Origin: a virus
Virus record (IMG/VR): IMGVR_UViG_3300035670_000055
Span: 32,001 to 96,000 of that record
Length of the DNA: 64,000 nucleotides
Direction: 5' to 3' (one strand)
Shown in pieces: positions 3,269-62,063 of the stretch (position 1 is the stretch's first letter; each line of letters starts with the position of its first letter). The notes under the pieces are model-generated. The model had not been told where the DNA came from. It saw only the letters and a program-made list of their open reading frames with translations, and did not search any database. A program made the translations under genes and the position numbers.

Positions 3269-6200
3269 ATGGATTTTTGTAAAATTGGAATAGATAACGC
3301 AGTAAATAGAGCTATTAAAAATAATCCAGATTATTCTTATGATGAAAAAAGTGGAATTATTGAAATAAGTGATAATCCTAACAAAGATTTAAATCAATAC
3401 ACATCAATTAGATTTGCAAAAGGAATAGCTGCACAAATTAATAAATTTATAAACGATGGAGAAAAGGCAATTGGAAGAATTGCCTATTCTTCTTTTTATA
3501 AAGGAAGAGGAGTTGTAAGAATTGTTCCTACTAATTCACAATTAGAATTAATTAATTCTAATGAAGAAAAAAAATATATAGAATTAGAAGATAAAATACA
3601 AGAAGAATTATTACAAGAAGAATTTAGAAAACTTGCAGAAGAATCTAATACATATCTGGATGAAGAAAAAGAAGTAGTTTATGAAGATCCTTTATTACAA
3701 TTATCAGATGAAAATTTAAAACCTGTCTCTCCAAAAATGTTAAAATTTGTAAAAGAATTTATTAAACAGATTGGTGTAGATTATCAAAAGGTTGATAAAA
3801 TTGTTGTAAATGGAAAAGTTATAGATGCTAATGGTATTGCTCGAATGATGAGTAAACTTATTCAAGTGGTTGAAGGAAAAGAATCTGTAGCTCTTCCAGA
3901 AGAAGCTATGCACTTTGCTGTAGAGATTATAGAACAAACTAATCCAAAATTATTTGAACAAATGTTGAAAGATATAAATGGAGAGGAAATTTATAAAGAT
4001 GTATTAGAACAATATGGTAAAAATCCATATTATCAAAAAGATGGTAAACCAGATATAAGAAAATTAAAAAAAGAAGCTATTGGTAAATTACTAGTAGATA
4101 AAGTTTCCAGCATAAAAGCACAAACTTGGTGGGATAAAATTGTAAAATTCTTAAAAGAACTATTTAATAAACCACAGATGGATGGTGTAGATAGTCTTAC
4201 ACAATTTGCAGAAATGATTGTATCTGGAGAAGATTTTGGCACTGTAAATGATATTAAATCTTTAGAAGATTATTTCCAATTAAATGAACAAGATAAAGTA
4301 TTTAATAAATTAAAAGATTTAGATAATCAAATAACAAAAGAAGATGATGGTGTAAATGATGATGGAGATCCAAGACAAAGTTATTTTATAGGTGATAAAA
4401 AAATTAAATATAGAGTTACAGATTTTGTAAGTGATTGGTATTTAAAAATATTTGGTAATGAACAAACAGAATATCAAAAAAGACTAGCAGAATTAAAAGC
4501 AGAAGAAGGAACAAAAGGACATTATCATTTTGAAAAAGCATTTGATACATTTGTAGATTCTGATACAGGATTACTGAGAGAAGATTTTTTAGAAGATGAT
4601 GATCAATATTTATCTACTTTATCACAGGTAGATAAAGATGTGTATGCTACATTAAAAGAAAATTTAAGAGATAGATTATTATCTTTTCCTGAAGGAAGTA
4701 AGTTCTTAAAAGAAACAAAAATATATGATGGTAAAGAAACTGCTGGTACAGTGGATTTATTAATTGTAGAACCTTCTGGTAAAGTTAGTATTATTGACTG
4801 GAAATTTATAGACATAAATACTGATAAATATGAAGATGTTCCTTGGTATAAAGTTAAAGCTTGGAATCTTCAAATGGAAAAATATAGAGGTATTCTTACT
4901 AAGAATTATGGAGTAAAAGAAGAAGATTTTAAGCAAACAAGAATGATACCTATTCTTGCTATGTACACAGATGCTGATTATCAGGGACAAAATCTTCCTA
5001 AATTAAGAGGAATTAAAATAGGTTCTGTAAATGTTGATAATATTAATGAAGATTATTTACTATATGTAGGATTTAAAGAAAGAACAGGGGATGAAAAAAT
5101 TGATAATTTATTAGATAAAATGAATAGTGTTTATTCTAAAATATCTAATGAAAAAGTATCTCCACAAGATAGACCTTTAAAAAATGAACAACTAAACTCT
5201 TTATATAAGGCTATTAGACACTTAGAAATAAAAAAAGATATTATCCCTTTAATTAATCAAGGAAAGGTGCTAAATAAACAAGTTAGTAATTTTATTAAAA
5301 AATACAATGATAATATAAAAGATAAATCTAAAGAAGAATTAGAAAAAGAAACAATTAATGAGTTTGCTGGAATGATTAGAGTGCACATGGAAGCTCTACA
5401 ACCATATTTAGGTATAAGGCAATTAAAGTATTTATTAAATGAAACTAATCCTGAATTTAATGAAATAAAATCAAAATTAAGAGATACGATAGAAGATGTA
5501 CAGGATTATCTGGATCAACTAGAATCTATAGATAAAGAATTTGGTAAAAAGTTTGTAGGAGCTAGTTACACAGCAGAAAAAGTTGTAAAAGGTATTACTA
5601 GATGGTTTGGTAATGCTGCTACAATTCAATTAGAGAATTTACAAAGATTATTTACATTAGCTAATGAAGCAACAGCAATTTCTAATTTCGAAGTGAGCGA
5701 TGAAGTAAAAAAATTAGAAGAACTTAAAGAAAAATATATTAATTGGGCTAGGTCAAAAGGATTATCTACAAAAGATTATTTTAAAATGATAATAAAGAAT
5801 GACAAAAATGAGCTGATTAATCAATACGATTCTAATTTTTATAAAGAATTAAAAACTGCAGTTGCTAAAAAAGATTTTAGATGGATATTAGATAATGTGG
5901 ACAAAGTCGAAGTTATTAAAAAAATAAAAGAACAAGAAGAAAGAGAAATAGACGCAGCTTTAAACTATCCTGTTGTTGGTTCTGAGGAGCATGTAAAAGC
6001 AGAAATCAATAGAAAAATAGCCAAGATTAAAGATAAATATGATGTTTCTACATCTACATCTAAAGGTTGGTTACAAGAGCAATTTATAAAAATACCAACG
6101 GAGAAATGGGAATCTCAGGAATGGAAAACATTACATGAAAAAGATTCTTCTGGAAATTATGTAAATCAACCAGCTATAGATTTTTATAATTATATTGTAG

Positions 6201-53605: not shown

Positions 53606-55909
53606 TTAATGTACCCAGAATTTTCCTATCTCTGGATTAGAGGTCATAATTTTTGGAGTTAAAAATTCGTTTGCTCCTTTTACCATTAATTCTGCTAGTA
53701 AATTTGCATCCTCTTGAGCATTTTTTGGTTGATTAGTAGATTCAATTAATATTTCATCGTGTACAGAGTTTATTAATTTTAAATGTTTATTTTTTTCAAT
53801 AAAATTTTTTCTAATCATAATTAATGCATTTTTTGTTTGATCTGCAGCAGTTCCTTGTATAAGATAATTTGTACTTTTTCTTTGAATTCTTCCTTTTATT
53901 CCAAAAAATCCTCTCCAATATTCTTTTATCTCAGGATATAAAGAATTTAACTCTTCTTTTAATAAAGCTTTTTTTTCTTTAGACATTTTATTTGTAAAAT
54001 ATTCTTCTGGGAAAAAAGATGAAGCTTTTTTTCTAAATTCTTCCATTTCTTCAAAAAGATTAGAAAACCATCTTCTATCTGTAATTGAATTAATTAAAAT
54101 GTAATTATTTTTAAATGTTTTTTTAGCTTGTTCTTCCATTAATAATTGTAACTTAGGATATGCTTTAAAATAATTTTTAATAAATTCTTCTGCATCAATT
54201 AATTCCATTCCAAAATCTTGTGCAAATCCTTTAGCCTCTTTTCCATATAAAATACCAAAATTTACAATTTTAGCTCTATCTCTTTGCTTTTTTATATTAT
54301 TAGTAAACTCTTTATCTCCTTTTTTAGGTAAATAATCAGCACCTGGATGTAATGCTTTATTCATAGCATCTGCTGTAGCCATGTGTAAATCATCTTCATA
54401 AATTTTATGTCCTTTTGTAAATACTTCTAACATAACATTTTCTCCTGATATACAAGCTGCTGTTCTCATTTCTTGATTGCCAAAATCTGAAGATATAACA
54501 GATCCTTTATCTAAAGCAAAAGCATCTCTATAAACTCCTTGAGGTAAATTTTGAATATTAGGATTATTACTAGCCATTCTACCAGAGTTTAAAATTTGTC
54601 TAAAATTACTATGAATTCTTCCTGTAACTGGATGTACATATTTTAACCATTCTAACCCAAAAGTTGTAACTGCTTGTTCACTTCTTTTCATAAGTAAATA
54701 AGCTAATATTAATTTACTATGATCTTCAATATATAATCCATTTTTATCTAATTCAAACCCTATCCATTGTTGATTATTATAAGCATCTTTAAGTTCATTT
54801 GGAATAGATTTTAATAGTGCTACTGCTCCAACAGTCCAATCTAATTTTTTAGTTTGTTTAGAAAATTCTTTAGGACAAATATCTAAATATCTAAATAGCT
54901 CTATTACTTGTTTAGAAGATCCCCATTCTATAATACATCTTCTATGAAAATTAAATAAATTAGGTTCTTCTACAAATTTTGGGTATAATTGTTCTATATA
55001 ACTATTTAATATATTTAGCCTTTCTAAATATTCTTTATGTTTTTTATTTTCAATATCTTTCCAAATTTCTTCTTTAAAAGGCATTCCATTTAACTCCATA
55101 TCAGCATTAACTAAAACCATTTTATTTTCTAATTCAAACAGTTTTGTAGGTTTGTATATTTCTTTGTTTGATAGAATTCTACCTAATTCTTGCCTTTCTG
55201 AAATTAGTAAAGGATATAAAATATCATCAGAACCATATAATATTTGCTTTTCTGTAAAAGGTTTATCATACAAAGTAACAAATTCCATTCTAGTTCCTTT
55301 ATCTATTATTTCTTCATCTGCTACCTCAAAAGGTGTTAATAAGTAATCGTTATTTAATAACATTTCATCATCTAAAGTAGATTTAGCTTCTAAATCAAAA
55401 AGAGAGAAATCATTTACACCCTTAACTCCTAAATACTCCTTAGCCATTCCAGCTAAAGAGTATGAACGAGTTAATCCATTATATAAACACATTTCTTGAA
55501 TCATTATATCTTTTACTTTATAGAAATCTATTCCATAATTAAACTTTAAATGTTTTTGCTCAAATTTTAAATTTTGCCCAATTAAAGTTAAATCTTTATT
55601 ATAATTTAATAAATTAATTAAAGGATTTAATTCTTTTTTAGAAAAACATCTTACGTCAATTACAAATATTTTTTTAAAGTCTCCTAATTGTAACATTACA
55701 ATTTTAGTTAAATAAGGATCTAATCCAGGTCTAAATTGTTTATTTCTTCTAAACTCTTTAAATATCTCTGGACTTTTTGCAGAGGTTTCTATATCTATTC
55801 CAATAATAGTTTTAGTTTTTAAATAATTATAACAATCTTCAACTGTTGCATAATTATTTATTCCTTCCACTTTGTAATTTGAAACAAAATATATTGTTGG
55901 TTTTTCCAT
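53606..55909 (-). CDS. polA: DNA polymerase, family A, with 3'-5' exonuclease
   Basis: Exo DIET, QNLKFE, Y..DD; SGRMAS.NPN.QN; motif A SDFGNQEMR; motif B RAKIVNFGILYG; N..IQGTAAD; motif C VHDE. Confidence 0.95.
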   Translation of the reverse strand: MEKPTIYFVSNYKVEGINNYATVEDCYNYLKTKTIIGIDIETSAKSPEIFKEFRRNKQFRPGLDPYLTKIVMLQLGDFKKIFVIDVRCFSKKELNPLINLLNYNKDLTLIGQNLKFEQKHLKFNYGIDFYKVKDIMIQEMCLYNGLTRSYSLAGMAKEYLGVKGVNDFSLFDLEAKSTLDDEMLLNNDYLLTPFEVADEEIIDKGTRMEFVTLYDKPFTEKQILYGSDDILYPLLISERQELGRILSNKEIYKPTKLFELENKMVLVNADMELNGMPFKEEIWKDIENKKHKEYLERLNILNSYIEQLYPKFVEEPNLFNFHRRCIIEWGSSKQVIELFRYLDICPKEFSKQTKKLDWTVGAVALLKSIPNELKDAYNNQQWIGFELDKNGLYIEDHSKLILAYLLMKRSEQAVTTFGLEWLKYVHPVTGRIHSNFRQILNSGRMASNNPNIQNLPQGVYRDAFALDKGSVISSDFGNQEMRTAACISGENVMLEVFTKGHKIYEDDLHMATADAMNKALHPGADYLPKKGDKEFTNNIKKQRDRAKIVNFGILYGKEAKGFAQDFGMELIDAEEFIKNYFKAYPKLQLLMEEQAKKTFKNNYILINSITDRRWFSNLFEEMEEFRKKASSFFPEEYFTNKMSKEKKALLKEELNSLYPEIKEYWRGFFGIKGRIQRKSTNYLIQGTAADQTKNALIMIRKNFIEKNKHLKLINSVHDEILIESTNQPKNAQEDANLLAELMVKGANEFLTPKIMTSNPEIGKFWVH

Positions 55910-55926
55910 AAATATTATATTTTCTT

Positions 55927-55934
55927 CAAATTTA
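55927..55934 (-). promoter_or_regulatory. -7 promoter box for polA
   Basis: TAAATTTG on the - strand, 17 nt upstream of the ATG. Confidence 0.6.
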
Positions 55935-55979
55935 AGAAAATTTTTGTAATTTTGAAATAATAAATTAATTTATTATTTA

Positions 55980-57573
55980 TTAATATTCATTTAATAATTG
56001 AACAATTGTATCTTTTATATTATATATTTCTTCTAATTCTTCTTTCATTTTATTTGTAATATAATTACAATATAACATAATAGATTTTATTTGTTGTTCG
56101 TTAAATTTTTTATTTTCCTGATATGTAAATGTTGCTGCATCTGGATTAAATGTAACAATTAGTCTTTCTTTAGATTTTCTATCCATAAAAACTAATTCAT
56201 AAGTATCATACACTTCTTCTATTTCTTCAATAGGATTTAACTCTTCATCAACAATGTTGTTAATGTCTAATTTTCTTAAAATTGTTTCTGTTTTCATTTT
56301 TAATATATTTTTTAATTATTTGTTTATATTTTTATTGAAAATTATTATCTATTTATAATAATCATTCCGTATTTTGGATGATATTGAATAGCACATTTAT
56401 ATTCATTAGCCAACTGATAAAATTTCTCAAGAAATTCTTTATGATTTTGATTAGTTATGTTATTATTTAATTCAATTTTTTGTCCTTCTAAACTTGCTTT
56501 TCGTAAGTCTATTTCAATTCCATGCTTTATCCCTCTATCCCAAGTTTCTCTCATCTCTTGTTTAGAATACTTATTGTTTCCAAATAATAAATTTAATGTA
56601 CTATCTTTTTCTTGAAAAGATGTATCATCTTTCATTTCTTCTTTAAAAATATGTTCAACTCTTAAATTCATTTTTGATTTTATTTAATATAATTTGTTTT
56701 GCTTTTTTGTATTCTTCTGTATTTTCTTTAACTTCCATTACAACATCTTTTGGTGTGGTGAAATCCATTTCTATATCAGGATATTCTAACAGTCCTAATA
56801 TATAATCATTCTCTAATTCTTCTAATACCAAATATACATTTGGATCTTCATCTTTAAAATATACAAGTTTCATAATTTTTATTGCTTATTGCGATATGCT
56901 ATATTTTGCATTTAAAAAACGTAATGCTTTTTATTTAATCTTGTAAATCAATAATAACCATCTTATAAACACTGATTTTAGCAATCAAAGGTAATGCTTG
57001 TTGTGCTGTCATTGTTTTAATTTTATTTTCCATATTACTGATGTAACGCTTATATTTTTCAATTAATTCATTATTGTTTTTCATAATTTATTTCTTTACA
57101 AAAATTAAAGGATTACGGAATGTTTTTTCTTCGGCTTCTTGCCATACTTTTTTTATCCCATTTGACTTAAAAGTATCACCCACACTTTCATAACTTATTA
57201 CTCTTTCAAGAGATATAGGGTTTTCCAACCAATAAAACCCTTTTGATTCAATAGCTGATTTGAATGATTTTAAGGCTTCATATAAAACTTCATCATCGTA
57301 TTTAGCCCTATAATCTCTATACATTATACTCTCTTCTAAATTTGAATAGGATTCTTCTACCAACTCACTTGCAATTTCTTCTGTGAGTTCTGAGCCTTTG
57401 CAGATAACCTCAAATTTGTCTAAAGTTGAAGCGTTAAGTTTAATTTCTTCATTTCCTATTTTTAGATACTTGCATTCTTTATTGATAAATTCATAATCTG
57501 CTAATCTTGGAATTTTAACAATAAGCACGTCTTTTTTTAATTTTAGTTCTAATATTTTCATATTTTTATCCAC
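55980..57573 (-). CDS. Hypothetical genes (55980-56297, 56345-56671, 56655-56873, 57088-57573)
   Basis: Co-directional small ORFs with no recognisable catalytic motifs. Confidence 0.55.
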
Positions 57574-57576
57574 TTT

Positions 57577-57819
57577 CTACAAGTGGGAAGTTTTAAGGTT
57601 AAAAAGGACAATATTTTTTTTAGGTATTTTCTCTAATTTAGATTTTAGGCTTTTTAATGAGTGAAATTTACCTTTTATGTTATATCCAATGCTTCCATTA
57701 TTATAAACTTGTTTTATTTCACGATTTGTTTTAGAGTTAAAACATTTATCATCAGAAAACACATAATTTTTAGCAAAATTTAATCTATATTTACATAGAT
57801 ACTTTACTGTTATAATCAT
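57577..57819 (-). CDS. 80-aa basic protein adjacent to the attI-like end of the cassette array
   Basis: MIITVKY...CFNSKTNREIKQV.NNGSIGYNIKGKF.SL..L...LEKIP; starts 35 nt from the first GTT core. Confidence 0.7.
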   Translation of the reverse strand: MIITVKYLCKYRLNFAKNYVFSDDKCFNSKTNREIKQVYNNGSIGYNIKGKFHSLKSLKSKLEKIPKKNIVLFNLKTSHL

Positions 57820-57829
57820 TGTTTTAGCC

Positions 57830-57864
57830 TTTGTGTTGTTTCGTCTATATTTGTGTTGGCAGCA
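57830..57864 (+). other. Putative attI-like site (array boundary)
   Basis: Core GTTGGCAGCA (57855-57864) with no hairpin upstream; 9-nt direct repeat tttgtgttg at 57830-57838 and 57850-57858. Confidence 0.45.
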
Positions 57865-57867
57865 AGT

Positions 57868-58131
57868 TTATTGAACCCACCACTCAACGACTTTACCAGT
57901 AACTCGGTCAACAATACAAGCCTTTGCAACTGTATCATCAACCAATGCTTTATATTCTTGTGCTTCTTTCAATGTTTTGACAGGTTCGGCAATGTTTTCA
58001 ACTTTCTTAAATCCGACTTCTGCAAAGCCTTTAAAAGAAATATTTACGACATAACGAAAACCTGCTGCCAACACCTGCTTTACAATAGCAGGGCTGACAT
58101 CTACATTTTGAGCATTTGTAATTCTATTCAT
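57868..58131 (-). CDS. Cassette 1 gene, hypothetical; starts inside the attC loop
   Basis: 87 aa; stop lies 3 nt from the core site at 57855-57864. Confidence 0.65.
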   Translation of the reverse strand: MNRITNAQNVDVSPAIVKQVLAAGFRYVVNISFKGFAEVGFKKVENIAEPVKTLKEAQEYKALVDDTVAKACIVDRVTGKVVEWWVQ

Positions 58132-58197
58132 CTTCTGTACTTATTTGAAAGTTAGTAATTCTAATCCCTGCCATCGTAAAGCATTATACCGTTGTAG
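58066..58197 (+). repeat. attC-like site 1 (132 nt)
   Basis: TGCCAAC-acc-tgctttacaatagcaggg ... ccctgccatcgtaaagca-ttatacc-GTTGTAG; 18-bp arms with 2 mismatches. Confidence 0.85.
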
Positions 58198-58203
58198 GAA
58201 ATG

Positions 58204-58530
58204 CTACAACTCTACAGCATAGCGTTCTTTTTCTTTTTTATAAAGATTTTTAAAGCTACCATTGGAAATAACTTTATTAAAACTATCCTTTTTTAATAAA
58301 ATTTCAGCATTTAATAAAGCGTTTCCTGCCATTCTTTTAATCTCAAAAACACCACCACTTAAACTTAATTTTATTGATTTTTTTTGATTATTATTTTCTC
58401 CATTTCCAATAAATGCAGTCCACATTGTAATTCCATTTTCTCGATGTTCAACAGTTATAAAATCTGCACTTTCAATATTAGCAGACATTGGAGCATCTAT
58501 TATTTTTAAAACTTTATAATTTATTTTCAT
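58204..58530 (-). CDS. Cassette 2 gene, hypothetical
   Basis: 108 aa, bounded by GTTGTAGGAA (58191-58200) and TTCCTACAAC (58576-58585). Confidence 0.7.
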   Translation of the reverse strand: MKINYKVLKIIDAPMSANIESADFITVEHRENGITMWTAFIGNGENNNQKKSIKLSLSGGVFEIKRMAGNALLNAEILLKKDSFNKVISNGSFKNLYKKEKERYAVEL

Positions 58531-58578
58531 TTTTATAATTTTTAGTTGTTAATATTTTTGTTTCCTTTCCCGCACTTC

Positions 58579-58658
58579 CTACAACACTATATTTGCAAAA
58601 ACGGCTCTGAAAAAACTTTGTGGATATCGCCGTATTCGCAAATACAAAACCGTTATCT
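58579..58658 (+). repeat. attC-like site 2 (80 nt)
   Basis: CTACAAC-acta-tatttgcaaaaacggc ... gccgtattcgcaaata-caaaacc-GTTATCT; 16-bp arms with 2 mismatches. Confidence 0.85.
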
Positions 58659-58695
58659 GTAATAGAGCCAAAGCTTTATTTTTTACTACTATTCG

Positions 58696-59019
58696 TTAAT
58701 AAAGATTATGTTTTTTAAGTATCTTTTTTAACTTTTCGTTTTCTTCATATAGCACATTAAATCTTGTCATTGCACTATCCAAAATTTTTAGTAAAGCATA
58801 ATTATCTATTAAGATTGGTTTATTTGCTAAACCTCTATATTTTACCATATTCAAAATATTTATTGAATTTTTAAATTCTTTTGTTTCGCTTTCATTTCCT
58901 ACGATAACATAACAATCATTTTTTTCTGAAATCTCTTTTATTAATGTTGAAGTTCCAGAACTTCTGTGTCTAATCATAAAATCATAAACACTCTTAATTA
59001 TTTCTTCGTTTTTTGACAT
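58696..59019 (-). CDS. Cassette 3 gene, minimal P-loop-like protein
   Basis: RHRSSGTSTL (Walker A-like), YVIV, PILIDN (Walker B-like). Confidence 0.55.
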   Translation of the reverse strand: MSKNEEIIKSVYDFMIRHRSSGTSTLIKEISEKNDCYVIVGNESETKEFKNSINILNMVKYRGLANKPILIDNYALLKILDSAMTRFNVLYEENEKLKKILKKHNLY

Positions 59020-59089
59020 TATTATATTTTTTATTAATTATTTAAAGTTCGCTTTCAGCTCTCATTTGCCATTGCTAAAAAACTTCTTC

Positions 59090-59170
59090 GCATAACATCG
59101 GTTTGGTTCTATGGCGTGGAAAACACCTTGCGCATACACGCCACAGAAACCAAGCCTTTTAACGTTAAAA
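59090..59170 (+). repeat. attC-like site 3 (81 nt)
   Basis: GCATAAC-atc-ggtttggttctatggcgtg ... cacgccacagaaaccaagcc-ttttaac-GTTAAAA; arms pair with one extra base and 2 mismatches. Confidence 0.85.
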
Positions 59171-59407
59171 ACGTTCATCGTCATCTTTTAATTTATTTGT
59201 TGAAAAGACTACTCTCAAAATAGCCGTAATTAATAAAAAAGGTAAAATAAAAGAAATTGATGCTGTTGGTGAATTGTTACAGCAACCGTCACCATCCCAA
59301 TGCCCGTTTCCTCCGTGTGCAATTGAAATTAAATGCCCTGGAGGACAATTATTTGGATGTTGTTTTGGAGGTCTTGGTATTTCTGAATTTATAAATATAT
59401 CACTCAT
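59165..59407 (-). CDS. Small Pro/Gly/Cys-rich protein with C-terminal TM helix
   Basis: 80 aa; the TAA stop lies inside the core site of attC-like site 3. Confidence 0.6.
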   Translation of the reverse strand: MSDIFINSEIPRPPKQHPNNCPPGHLISIAHGGNGHWDGDGCCNNSPTASISFILPFLLITAILRVVFSTNKLKDDDERF

Positions 59408-59435
59408 TGTTTTTAATTTTTTTATTTGTTATTAG

Positions 59436-59573
59436 TTCCTGTGACAGGATTCGAACCTGTATGTTATCTTCAACTTTTTTGTTGTCTAATAGTTTGACAA
59501 TCTGATTTGTATAAGACTTGCAAATCTAATACTCATTTGATAACCATGTGTCTACCAATTCCACCACACAGGA
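59436..59573 (-). ncRNA. tRNA-like RNA (Leu-type D arm) with a 70-nt insertion replacing the anticodon loop
   Basis: Acceptor TCCTGTG/CACAGGA+A; D arm TGGTGGAATTGGTAGACAC; T arm ACAGG-TTCGAAT-CCTGT; stem GTTATC/GATAAC enclosing 59469-59538; no encoded CCA. Confidence 0.75.
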
Positions 59574-59610
59574 AAATAAAAAAGGCTGTTTAAATTAATA
59601 AACAGCTTTT
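59574..59610 (-). terminator. Intrinsic terminator abutting the 5' end of the tRNA-like RNA
   Basis: aaaggctgttta-aattaa-taaacagctttt with a U-tract on the - strand. Confidence 0.65.
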
Positions 59611-59623
59611 ATAAATTTTAAAA

Positions 59624-60061
59624 TTATAATAATTGCTGTTTTTTATAAGCAATCATTTCTAATTTTTCTTCATACAATTCAATTTGTTTTTTTGTATGAT
59701 ACTTTTGAGCTTGAATTTCTTCTTCTTTTTGTTTTCTAGCTCTAATTCCTTTATTAAATTGTTCATCTAATTGAAAAACATAAGATTCTCTTAGTTCTAC
59801 TGTAGCAATTTTATCTACATTAATTTCAATAAAAGCTTGTTCTTCTTGTTCTTTAATTTCTTCAAGTTTTTCTTTTGAAATTTCCAGATAATCTTCTAGA
59901 TCTCTTTTTAATTTTTCAATTTGTGCATTACATTTTCTTTCTTCATCTTTATAATATCTTTCCATACGTTTTTTCATTGAAGAAACTTTTGCTTCTTCTG
60001 TAACGTTTAAAAATGATAATACTCTTTCTACCCATGACTCTTTTTTAGCTTGTGTGCTCAT
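59624..60061 (-). CDS. Coiled-coil hypothetical protein
   Basis: 145 aa, E/K-rich heptads. Confidence 0.65.
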   Translation of the reverse strand: MSTQAKKESWVERVLSFLNVTEEAKVSSMKKRMERYYKDEERKCNAQIEKLKRDLEDYLEISKEKLEEIKEQEEQAFIEINVDKIATVELRESYVFQLDEQFNKGIRARKQKEEEIQAQKYHTKKQIELYEEKLEMIAYKKQQLL

Positions 60062-60110
60062 AATAAATAAATGTTTAATAATTAATAATTTTTTAAATTT
60101 TTTTTGTTTG

Positions 60111-62063
60111 TTATTCTATATCTGGAGTTGGTCCATATATATCAAATTCTTTTTCTACAAATATAGAAACATTTTTCCAATAATCAGAAAATGTTGATGG
60201 ATATTGTCCTACTTCATCATGAATATATATATTTCCAAGCCTTTCTTCATAAGGATCATATCCCATTATATATCTTGAAGATACCTTTTCAGGAATTCCT
60301 AACCAAGTTTTCTGTTGTTCATAAGCTTCTTTTGTGGAAGGTTTCCATCTATACTTTATTAAATTTACATAAAGATTATCATATTCGTTAAAATTAACTA
60401 AATCATTACAATTTAATACTGCAAAAGTTAAATCATTAGAATTTTTAACTTTATATATTTTTCCTTGAATAAAATAATCAGAAAAAGAATCAATTGCTTC
60501 TATATATTCAGGAACTTCTGTAATACTTTCTTCTGGTAAAGAAATTAATTCTGCCCATTTTCCATTTTGAAATAAGAATCCTCCTCTTATGTGTGCCCAA
60601 ATACTGTTTCCAAAAATTCTATAAGTATCAGAACCATCTTTTAAGACATATGTCATTCCATTAATAGAAATATATGTACAACCAATAGGAAATCTTTTCT
60701 TACATTCTTCTTGAATTTCTTCCATAGATAATTCTTTTTTCTGTAATTCTGTTACGTCATAAGGTTTACCTCTTCTTTCATACTCGTCTATTTCTTCTTG
60801 TGTAGCATATTTCCAGTTTGGATATTCTGGTTTATATTTTACCCAACCATTAGTTATGGAATCTAAAGAATCATATTCAGGTTGTAAATAAGTTGAATCT
60901 TTTCTTTGTTTATAAATATGATTAGATACGAAGTCTTTACTATAACTATCAAATTTATCTGTAATAACAATATATTCTCCTTTTTTAAATTCATTAGATT
61001 GTATTTTATCTGGATTATTGCTAAACCCTGTTCCATTACAATCTGGACAAGTATCTATTACTTCTGTATGTCCAGAAGGATATAATTTAGCTATCATAGT
61101 TTCTCCTTCACCATTACAAGTTTCACAAAATTTATCTGGATGATCCAGAGGAAGAAATTCTTGTACTTCTTCTGCAGATATTTCTTGTATTTGTTCAACT
61201 TTTGATTTATCAAAAGTTCCTGAATAATTATAATCAGTACAGCCAAGTATCCAAGGAGACATAACAAGAGTATCTGTATATATATCTATACCATTAACTT
61301 TACCATAATGATAACTTCCATGATTTTTTTGATACCATTTATACCATTTTCCAAATTCAAATTTCTGATTAATAATTTTATCAGAATGTCCATCAGGTAA
61401 GTATTCTTGAATTTCTGATAAATCTTCTACTAACTTAATTCTTGTTAAATCTCCACTTGAACCAGTTTCACATCTATAACCACTATTTCCAATTAATTCT
61501 GAATAAGATAATTTATTTTCTACAGGAATTTTGGAACATTTTCTATAGGCATTTTCACAATTAATTAGTTTATACCATTTACCAGGAATAAATTCTATAT
61601 TAGGCTCTTTAACCTCTTGTTCTGGAGAATAATCTTCTGGTAATAATTCGTATCTTATTCCTAAAGTTCCTTCTGATAAAGCGTTGCTACAAGAGTAGTT
61701 TTTAGAATTTGGAAAATCTACTTTACTTGAAGAAAATATTTTACCAACATCTCCTTTTTTTACTCCACTTCCTAAATGAGGATTGTCTACTAAAGCTCTA
61801 ATATATCTACCAATATGTTGTGATAAATCATCAAAATATTCTTGTTGTTTTTTTATTACATAATCTGTATTTAGAAACAGCCAACCATCATATTTAAATT
61901 CTTCATTTTTATCACAATATACAGTGTATTCATCAGGAACATCTATCCCTAAATAGTTATTCATTTCTCCATCAGAATTCCACTTATCTGGACAATTATA
62001 TTCTTCATCCCATAATCCATCTCGAATAAATTCTTTTTTTGTTTTAAATCTGTATTTACTCAT
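60111..62063 (-). CDS. Mosaic multi-module protein with internal repeats and a Zn-finger insert
   Basis: Repeated F..GKWYK / F.KGEYI / FIQGKIYK and E.QE.LP..H.DK modules; CETCNGEG...CPDCNGTG. Confidence 0.7.
   Translation of the reverse strand: MSKYRFKTKKEFIRDGLWDEEYNCPDKWNSDGEMNNYLGIDVPDEYTVYCDKNEEFKYDGWLFLNTDYVIKKQQEYFDDLSQHIGRYIRALVDNPHLGSGVKKGDVGKIFSSSKVDFPNSKNYSCSNALSEGTLGIRYELLPEDYSPEQEVKEPNIEFIPGKWYKLINCENAYRKCSKIPVENKLSYSELIGNSGYRCETGSSGDLTRIKLVEDLSEIQEYLPDGHSDKIINQKFEFGKWYKWYQKNHGSYHYGKVNGIDIYTDTLVMSPWILGCTDYNYSGTFDKSKVEQIQEISAEEVQEFLPLDHPDKFCETCNGEGETMIAKLYPSGHTEVIDTCPDCNGTGFSNNPDKIQSNEFKKGEYIVITDKFDSYSKDFVSNHIYKQRKDSTYLQPEYDSLDSITNGWVKYKPEYPNWKYATQEEIDEYERRGKPYDVTELQKKELSMEEIQEECKKRFPIGCTYISINGMTYVLKDGSDTYRIFGNSIWAHIRGGFLFQNGKWAELISLPEESITEVPEYIEAIDSFSDYFIQGKIYKVKNSNDLTFAVLNCNDLVNFNEYDNLYVNLIKYRWKPSTKEAYEQQKTWLGIPEKVSSRYIMGYDPYEERLGNIYIHDEVGQYPSTFSDYWKNVSIFVEKEFDIYGPTPDIE

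Follow-up and report, generated by a model that had tools for sequence, protein, structure and literature searches.

Array of cassette-like units in the phage genome

The window analysed here is a stretch of 64,000 nucleotides, bases 32001-96000 of a 115,492-bp IMG/VR virus record (IMGVR_UViG_3300035670_000055) which is rated complete by CheckV, and the subject of this work is a set of three cassette-like units at window positions 57855-59166. The units are 336, 461 and 512 bp long, and each of them holds one minus-strand open reading frame (ORF) and one site resembling the attC site of integrons, in which AAC and GTT frame a stem-loop, with a spacer of 3-4 nt behind the AAC and one of 7 nt ahead of the GTT. 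The GTT cores are located at 57855, 58191, 58652 and 59164. The original prediction, made from the sequence alone, had read the locus as an integron-like cassette array; its unit sizes follow from these GTT positions, and its assignment of one small ORF per unit was correct (87, 108 and 107 amino acids (aa), all on the minus strand). We consider it likely that the array is an integrase-less, three-cassette member of an integron-like system native to the Flavobacteriaceae (Bacteroidota) and their phages. Its features are as follows.

57855-58190 (336 bp): cassette 1, from the G/TT at 57855 to the G at 58191, limited by the ends of homology
57855-57869: start of cassette 1, one arm of the R helix, pairing with 58058-58072 (10 bp, a G.T wobble on the minus strand, 4 bp)
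57868-58131, minus strand: cargo ORF of cassette 1 (87 aa, from the ORF list), antisense to the site polarity
58061-58202, plus strand: site 1, attC-like, with AAC at 58070-58072, spacer ACC, spacer TTATACC and GTT at 58191-58193
58076-58104 and 58155-58183: L arms of site 1 (inverted repeat I2)
58191-58651 (461 bp): cassette 2, limited by the end of homology to locus L003 and by start-to-site pairing
58204-58530, minus strand: cargo ORF of cassette 2 (108 aa), antisense, no Pfam or PHROG match
58574-58663, plus strand: site 2, short class, with AAC at 58583-58585, spacer ACTA, stem TATTTGC...GCAAATA, spacer CAAAACC and GTT at 58652-58654
58652-59163 (512 bp): cassette 3, ends pairing at 5 of 7 positions
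58696-59019, minus strand: cargo ORF of cassette 3 (107 aa), antisense, no Pfam or PHROG match
59085-59175, plus strand: site 3, short class, with AAC at 59094-59096, spacer ATC, stem GGTTTGGTTC...GAAACCAAGCC, spacer TTTTAAC and GTT at 59164-59166

All three ORFs are thus antisense to their sites. The start codon of the cassette 1 ORF lies within the loop of site 1, which also encloses the ribosome-binding site, and the GC content of this cassette is 36-38%, compared with 25.6% for the window. The short repeats from which the array was first recognized are present as described: GTTGGCAGCA (57855-57864) is the reverse complement of TGCTGCCAAC (58063-58072), GTTGTAGGAA (58191-58200) is that of TTCCTACAAC (58576-58585), and GTTATCT at 58652 matches GCATAAC at 59090 at five of seven positions. 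Two of them are longer than first noted, with 16 of 17 positions matched between 57853-57869 and 58058-58074 (repeat I19) and 17 of 20 between 58185-58204 and 58572-58591.

Exact ends of the units and movement between contigs

Scans with the 87-aa protein of cassette 1 recovered 16 metagenome loci together with L002 and L021, which represent a single phage-like Flavobacterium caeni contig of 39.7 kb. In at least nine loci (L002, L005-L011 and L019; GC content 27-56%), homology to the window in blastn stops exactly at 57855, the other edge of the homology falls at 58183-58193, and nothing is shared beyond the unit. On the coding strand, every copy of cassette 1 ends with ...TAAACTTGCnGnnAAC, and the flanks beyond it are then unrelated, while at the 5' edge AAC precedes the cassette in ten contexts, with L002 as the exception. 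The AAC and the G alone are conserved at the joint, and some of the far flanks hold no site. For L005 and L006, which lie in contigs of 54-56% GC, the identity is 100% over 339 bp (58193-57855), and 339 bp that are identical in a 25%-GC phage and a 55%-GC contig are an unusually clean sign of recent movement. Judged by these alignments, unit 1 is a discrete mobile module.

Similar limits were found for the other units. L003 is homologous to unit 2 solely over 58533-58190 and diverges directly past ...CTACAAC, and contigs from wastewater runs break at 57855-57858, 58183, 58192 and 58651-58654. The cassette boundaries were therefore found at the G/TT of R', with breakpoints at 57855, 58190-58193 and 58651-58654, and the earlier claim that each unit is bounded at G/TT and carries its own folded site is borne out, with exact ends for units 1 and 2. 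For cassette 3, locus L030, which came up among viral contigs when the apical stem of hairpin 3 was used as query, has the same two ends (58647-58682 at 94% and 59020-59167 at 82%) around a different ORF, and site 3 is 82% identical to the fifth site of L030. Cassette 3 is probably chimeric or decayed, because its ends pair at just five of seven positions.

In L005 (1248-1639) and L006 (119-510), cassette 1 forms a 38%-GC segment of a phage-like contig of 54-56% GC, 3' of a C5 methyltransferase gene. A GC-rich version of the site comes next to it (63% GC; 32.6 bits with R1, the covariance model of the sites), so the system works in high-GC backgrounds as well. Joints that go back along the window (for example, from 58559 to 58224) were discarded, since they lie off G/TT and have short sides.

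Pairing rule and covariation of the cassette ends

The start of a cassette is complementary to its own R'' side over 10 bp, followed by A/G at position 11 and about 4 bp more, which is referred to here as the chain rule. Window units 1 and 2 obey it, with starts complementary to their own R'' at 10/10 positions and beyond; in unit 2, the start GTTGTAGGAA-A-TGC pairs with 58572-58585 as 10 bp, a wobble and 3 bp. The observation that cores match across each unit rather than within each hairpin can therefore be kept for units 1 and 2 (10/10 and covarying) and does not hold for unit 3, whose ends do not follow the rule. The match across units would arise because, in a circular cassette, the first 15 nt pair with its own R'' side as 10 bp, a G.T wobble and 4 bp.

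Across the cassette 1 family, the non-coding terminus past the stop codon and the interior site at codons 20-25 change together: CTTGCTGCCAAC occurs with GTTGGCAGCAGG, CTTACCGCTAAC with GTTAGCGGTAGG, and CTTGCCGATAAC with GTTATCGGCTGG. Three compensatory pairs are present in every variant of terminus and interior, the G.T wobble of the coding strand is conserved, and the compensatory changes are located in L011 and in L012/L014/L016/L017. From the sequences, such covariation would be expected for a site that is split by circular permutation. The same rule was found in long arrays. Six of ten consecutive cassettes in L030 show 10/10 complementarity, A versus G at position 11 and four more pairs; of the other four, one is limited to the 10/10 run and three show less complete pairing. 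In addition to L030, the chain rule is present in L032, L037, L038, L039, Flavobacterium phage filifjonk9-1 and chromosomal arrays.

Folding and statistics of the three sites

When the three sites were scored with covariance model R1, site 1 reached 100 bits, a value to be read with site 1 itself in the training set, and sites 2 and 3 reached 55 and 53.5 bits, respectively. A hidden Markov model (HMM) built from 52 sites outside the window was also searched against the 115-kb genome, and it matched 58062-58202 (E 1e-11), 58575-58663 (E 2e-4) and 59086-59167 (E 9e-5); beyond these, the best match had an E value of 4.8, so the model recognizes these three places alone. Against shuffled sequences, hairpin 3 stands out strongly (plus strand, z = -4.2; minus strand, z = -3.1) and hairpin 2 moderately (minus strand, z = -2.2). 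The fold energy of site 1 is -16.2 on the minus strand versus -10.4 on the plus strand. The predicted layout of three hairpins framed by AAC and GTT is thus present, but its bare geometry is at chance level and hairpin 1 is weak. A scan for AAC, spacer, 8-bp stem, spacer and GTT gave 36 matches in comparison with 13-40 in shuffled sequences, and a second scan gave 15 in comparison with 9-17. The loose geometric scan was therefore rejected as evidence, as it shows no enrichment over shuffles in this AT-rich genome, and the case must rest on other evidence. Rfam had no relevant family in 55000-62000.

The asymmetry of the R helix, as far as the sequences tell, favours the minus strand as the folding strand. 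The fixed asymmetries of the R helix and the L stem may stand in for the extrahelical bases of attC sites, by analogy with those sites.

Site family in phages and in Flavobacteriaceae chromosomes

The window sites belong to a family that is found in both phages and chromosomes. L030 carries 11 sites with small minus-strand ORFs in a 5.4-kb stretch, and at least seven sites lie among the methyltransferase genes of filifjonk9-1 (Muminvirus), a lytic Flavobacterium phage; in L030 and L032, all ORFs are antisense to the site. The site P12002L_attC1 of Polaribacter phage P12002L, which was called as a phage attC site by HattCI (PMC9892861), is also a member of the family, with the same polarity. 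When 24 sites were aligned, AACA and CGT did not vary and the T that comes next hardly did, and the spacers across the family are 3-4 nt and 6-7 nt. Using the 52 sites outside the window, the proximal 8-bp L stem was found to be continuous and 92.8% paired, with compensatory changes in seven of eight pairs and a covariation score of 0.424 versus 0.115 in shuffles (exceeded in 0 of 500). The distal L stem (helix 3 as drawn) is 32-38% paired and was rejected as a fixed-register helix. The AAC-to-GTT lengths in L030, L032, L037, L042 and L044 are mostly about 72-74, 116-126 and 185-194 nt, and these three groups suggest modular inserts in the loop.

Covariance model R1 has matches in 109 of the 151 Flavobacteriaceae genomes that were sampled. 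The array of genome G142 holds 52 sites, all on one strand, across 67 kb, and 31 of its 32 dominant ORFs are sense to the site. This array region (L046-L049, G142:C1:81189-152794) includes a VWA + NOV_C protein in its cargo. Taken together, the exact ends, the covarying ends and the long arrays with the same cross-unit rule support the overall reading of the units as cassettes.

Array-linked recombinase

Searches of the entire 115-kb phage genome for a tyrosine recombinase (PF00589), a serine recombinase and a Y1 transposase gave no match. The original prediction was correct that the window has no tyrosine recombinase, and the rest of the genome, where it proposed to look for IntI, likewise has none. 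Since a Xer/IntI-like recombinase of about 400 aa is absent from the phage, the window array is an integrase-less member of the system. On the chromosome of G142, a 401-aa tyrosine recombinase (G142 151592-152794) is encoded 3 kb upstream of the array head and is co-oriented with the array. Its best family is XerA (211 bits), and it scores 186.5 bits with the IntI model TIGR02249, whose cut-off is 265; the IntI match is in two stretches and skips model positions ~177-239, which we take to be the location of the IntI-specific domain. The best solved relatives of the enzyme are XerA, then IntI4. Homologues of the recombinase occur in 76 of the 151 genomes, and in 13 genomes a homologue lies 0.7-12 kb 5' of listed R1 sites and is co-oriented with them. 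An IS3 transposase gene sits between the G142 recombinase and the first array site.

The genome of Flavobacterium caeni has no match at the IntI cut-off. When TIGR02249 was run on the 151 genomes at E < 1e-40, neither the genomes nor the controls gave a match, and because this threshold is too strict for split six-frame matches, the outcome does not count as a negative.

Proposed mechanism and alternative explanations

On the basis of these results, we propose the following mechanism. After crossover at G/TT, a cassette would start at the TT, hold one small gene and end with the folded site, in which R'' (...AAC), 3-4 nt, the L stem, the loop, the L stem, 6-7 nt and G would follow one another. 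Insertion and excision would take place during infection, most likely by a Xer/IntI-like tyrosine recombinase of about 400 aa from the host, of the kind that heads the chromosomal arrays. The phage gene, unlike chromosomal cargo, is antisense to the site, and because of this orientation the site lies in front of the gene. The simplest reading is that a host enzyme acts in trans. The unit ends, the covarying pairing, the site family with its distribution and the linkage of the recombinase to chromosomal arrays are observations, and circular intermediates, folding as single strands, the identity of the acting enzyme and the role of the cargo are inferred. The original prediction had suggested a host IntI as a possibility for this role, which has to be replaced: the likely enzyme is instead Xer/IntI-like and below the IntI cut-off, and P12002L_attC1 failed with IntI1 (PMC9892861). 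The cargo probably consists of counter-defence or accessory genes, and in other phages such cassettes carry DNA methyltransferases. We also put forward, tentatively and as slightly less likely than not, that a separate pool of antisense cassettes is maintained by Bacteroidota phages, with the site serving as the leader of the gene, and that these cassettes are swapped during infection via the host Xer-like recombinase between unrelated phages and across GC-divergent hosts; the cargo of this pool would likely be counter-defence, and the network would run parallel to the chromosomal one, in a phylum that is considered almost free of integrons.

Several observations weigh against a flavobacterial integron-like array. 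Unit 3 breaks the pairing rule at its ends (5/7), the left junction of L002 is without the AA, and L003 has the gene of unit 2 without its own site. No circular or excised form, and no joint at the predicted circle junctions, which should lie at G/TT, was seen among the assembled contigs compared with the window, and the empty site, in which the flank at 57855 would be joined to the flank at 59165, was not found in viral contigs. Hairpin 1 is weak against shuffles (z = -1.5 on the minus strand and +0.2 on the plus strand). The folding strand is also indicated inconsistently: in the R helix, G.T falls on the minus strand and A.C on the plus strand, whereas it is the plus strand that carries T.G in the commonest L stem. 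Finally, the link between arrays and recombinase is, at the level of sequence, one of neighbourhood, and the host of the phage is suggested by the site family alone.

Among other explanations, a remnant of a classical integron, that is, a group of clustered attC sites that has no integron-integrase (CALIN), with ordinary attC sites and cassettes moved by a canonical host IntI, seems very unlikely. The sites do follow the attC plan of R'', L'', L' and R' with crossover at G/TT and the longer spacer adjoining R', HattCI called the family member P12002L_attC1 an attC site, and IntI1 did recombine other phage attC sites whose R''-L'' spacer is 3 nt long (PMC9892861). However, P12002L_attC1 was the sole failure with IntI1 among six phage sites in the same study (PMC9892861), and the IntegronFinder 2.0 survey reported almost no integrons in Bacteroidetes, yet the sites occur in 109 of the 151 Flavobacteriaceae genomes. 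The cargo is antisense, and extrahelical bases are not apparent in the proximal L stem. With no match at the IntI cut-off in Flavobacterium caeni, an array-linked enzyme that skips part of the IntI model and remains at 186.5 bits against 265, and no recombinase in the phage, the system is not a classical integron. Ordinary phage mosaicism is the least probable account. Here the hairpins would be promoters, terminators or 5' untranslated regions, and exchange at intergenic motifs would be homologous or illegitimate, as in the promoter early stem-loop (PeSL) elements, which are known for mini-circles and modular shuffling (PMC2839356). Such exchange fits the 82-94% conservation between window and L030 sites, with the same flanks around different ORFs, and the ribosome-binding site and start codon enclosed by site 1. 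The crossovers, however, are not scattered within the element as in PeSLs: the breakpoint is fixed to one nucleotide in at least nine contexts with non-homologous far flanks. Homologous exchange also does not predict the covariation of cassette start and R'' over 200-800 bp, and the same sites build 67-kb one-directional chromosomal arrays beside a recombinase.

Different machinery, namely an unrecognized phage enzyme, host XerC/D or an HUH-type nuclease, or an mRNA 5'-3' panhandle for which mobility would be secondary, is unlikely. A panhandle would explain why the R helix and hairpin 1 have their G.T wobbles on the coding strand, as RNA predicts; but chromosomal cargo is sense and the pairing rule is unchanged there, so the same strand is not an mRNA 5' leader in the chromosomes. 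In favour of other machinery, the phage arrays themselves have no enzyme tied to them, and hosts of 25%- and 55%-GC phages that carry identical cassettes may not share one recombinase. The lack of a Y1 transposase and a serine recombinase in the phage genome and the co-localization of the recombinase with arrays in 13 genomes stand against it. A single-strand transposon of the IS200/IS605 type was rejected as a candidate, as Y1 transposase was not found and the chain rule does not fit it.

Relation to known systems

Compared with integrons and CALINs, the array proposed here as part of a flavobacterial integron-like system shares one-gene cassettes, one-directional arrays, a folded R''/L''/L'/R' site with G/TT crossover and cassette starts complementary to their own R''. 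As in sedentary chromosomal integrons, a tyrosine recombinase from the Xer/IntI branch stands at the head of large chromosomal arrays. Unlike the classical integron, the flavobacterial recombinase is below the IntI cut-off and co-oriented with the array. The sites also differ from canonical attC: the spacers are 3-4 and 6-7 nt instead of 5 and 5-6 nt, the 15-bp R helix has G.T/A.C at a constant position, and the proximal L stem has no apparent extrahelical bases. Whereas classical cassettes have a promoterless sense ORF with attC downstream, the phage cargo here is antisense and the chromosomal arrays are sense in 31 of 32 cases. Integrative mobile elements exploiting Xer (IMEX) have no recombinase of their own and use the Xer-type tyrosine recombinase of the host. 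They integrate at the chromosomal dif site, in double-stranded or folded single-stranded form, one at a time and without arrays of cassettes carrying their own sites.

Integrase-less attC clusters with 2-4 sites per phage were reported in virulent phages by Qi et al. 2023 (PMC9892861), who treated them as classical. Their clusters are similar to the present array in lacking an integrase, in holding small genes and DNA methyltransferases and in occurring in lytic phages, but the flavobacterial site family, the chain rule, the chromosomal arrays, the Xer-like enzyme and the Muminvirus arrays are not part of that report. Among phage systems, the closest analogue is given by the PeSLs of T4-type phages (PMC2839356, PMC4122927), promoter-terminator units that recombine homologously at variable points. 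Like the present units, they flank small orphan genes in plastic early regions with conserved stem-loops, and mini-circles have been proposed for them; unlike in PeSLs, the joint here always falls at a single position, there is covariation between the ends, and chromosomal arrays linked to a recombinase are built from the same elements. No account of the flavobacterial system was found in our searches of the literature.

The capture of single genes is the textbook role of integrons, and the same logic is now found in Flavobacteriaceae and their lytic phages, with an apparently simpler, Xer-type enzyme and differently built sites. The system therefore bears on the evolution of IntI/attC recognition from Xer recombination, and it offers a natural single-gene insertion system for Bacteroidota. 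If phages trade accessory genes via a host enzyme, part of the extreme plasticity seen in their early regions would be explained. For example, the 15 methyltransferase gene variants of Muminvirus phages, which track host range (PMC7077304), would be a case of such plasticity.

Cargo genes and genomic setting

The four small ORFs had no Pfam match and no PHROG match. The 87-aa protein has 54 homologous protein clusters in metagenomes, none of them named; its AlphaFold model (predicted local distance difference test score 71) gave no fold match with E < 0.1, and no relative was found by tblastn against phages. The cassette 2 ORF shows 80% amino-acid identity to a gene of L003, and the cassette 3 ORF has no relative among viral contigs.

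The DNA comes from a subsurface metagenome study, and the region recurs in part in wastewater metagenomes. The phage, which is described as virulent, encodes a DNA polymerase, RIIA/RIIB, ribonucleotide reductase and a DnaB-type helicase, and every gene in 56-62 kb of the window is on the minus strand. Over its full length the polymerase is matched best by crAss-like phages, as the original label had it, but the label holds loosely at most because the identity is just 24-26%. In blastn, window 56500-60500 had no match among isolated phages, and L001, the sole relative reached via a 650-aa protein encoded near the array (60111-62063, minus strand), has no sites within 21 kb. This protein carries a DnaJ-type CxxCxGxG zinc finger at residues 311-347, a stretch that also weakly matches phage Q-like antiterminator families. 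Between the array and this gene lies a tRNA-like gene (59436-59573, minus strand; Rfam tRNA 36.4 bits, E 6e-5), in which the acceptor, D and T arms are intact and about 80 nt surround the anticodon, compared with 15 expected; ARAGORN made no tRNA call across the window, this gene included.

Window 59164-59419 is a candidate decayed fourth unit, in which GTTAAAAAC (59164) has a counterpart in GTTTTTAAT (59411-59419). The match is 8/9, the AAC core is lost and the hairpin does not follow, and in AT-rich DNA it may be due to chance; it adjoins the start (upstream side) of an 80-aa Cys-rich ORF (59165-59407, minus strand). At the other end of the array, a 9-nt direct repeat, TTTGTGTTG, is present in two copies 18 nt apart from start to start (57832-57858), and the second copy spans the first G/TT of the array. 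Farther along, the motif CTTCCCACTTGTAGAAAGTGG, a small hairpin, is located just 5' of start codons at window 57570-57590 (minus strand) and at 5718-5734 and 5974-5990 of L003, and resembles R' of cassette 2 (GTTGTAGGAAGTGC). The window segment around this motif, 57304-57705, has a very high summed contig depth in wastewater runs.

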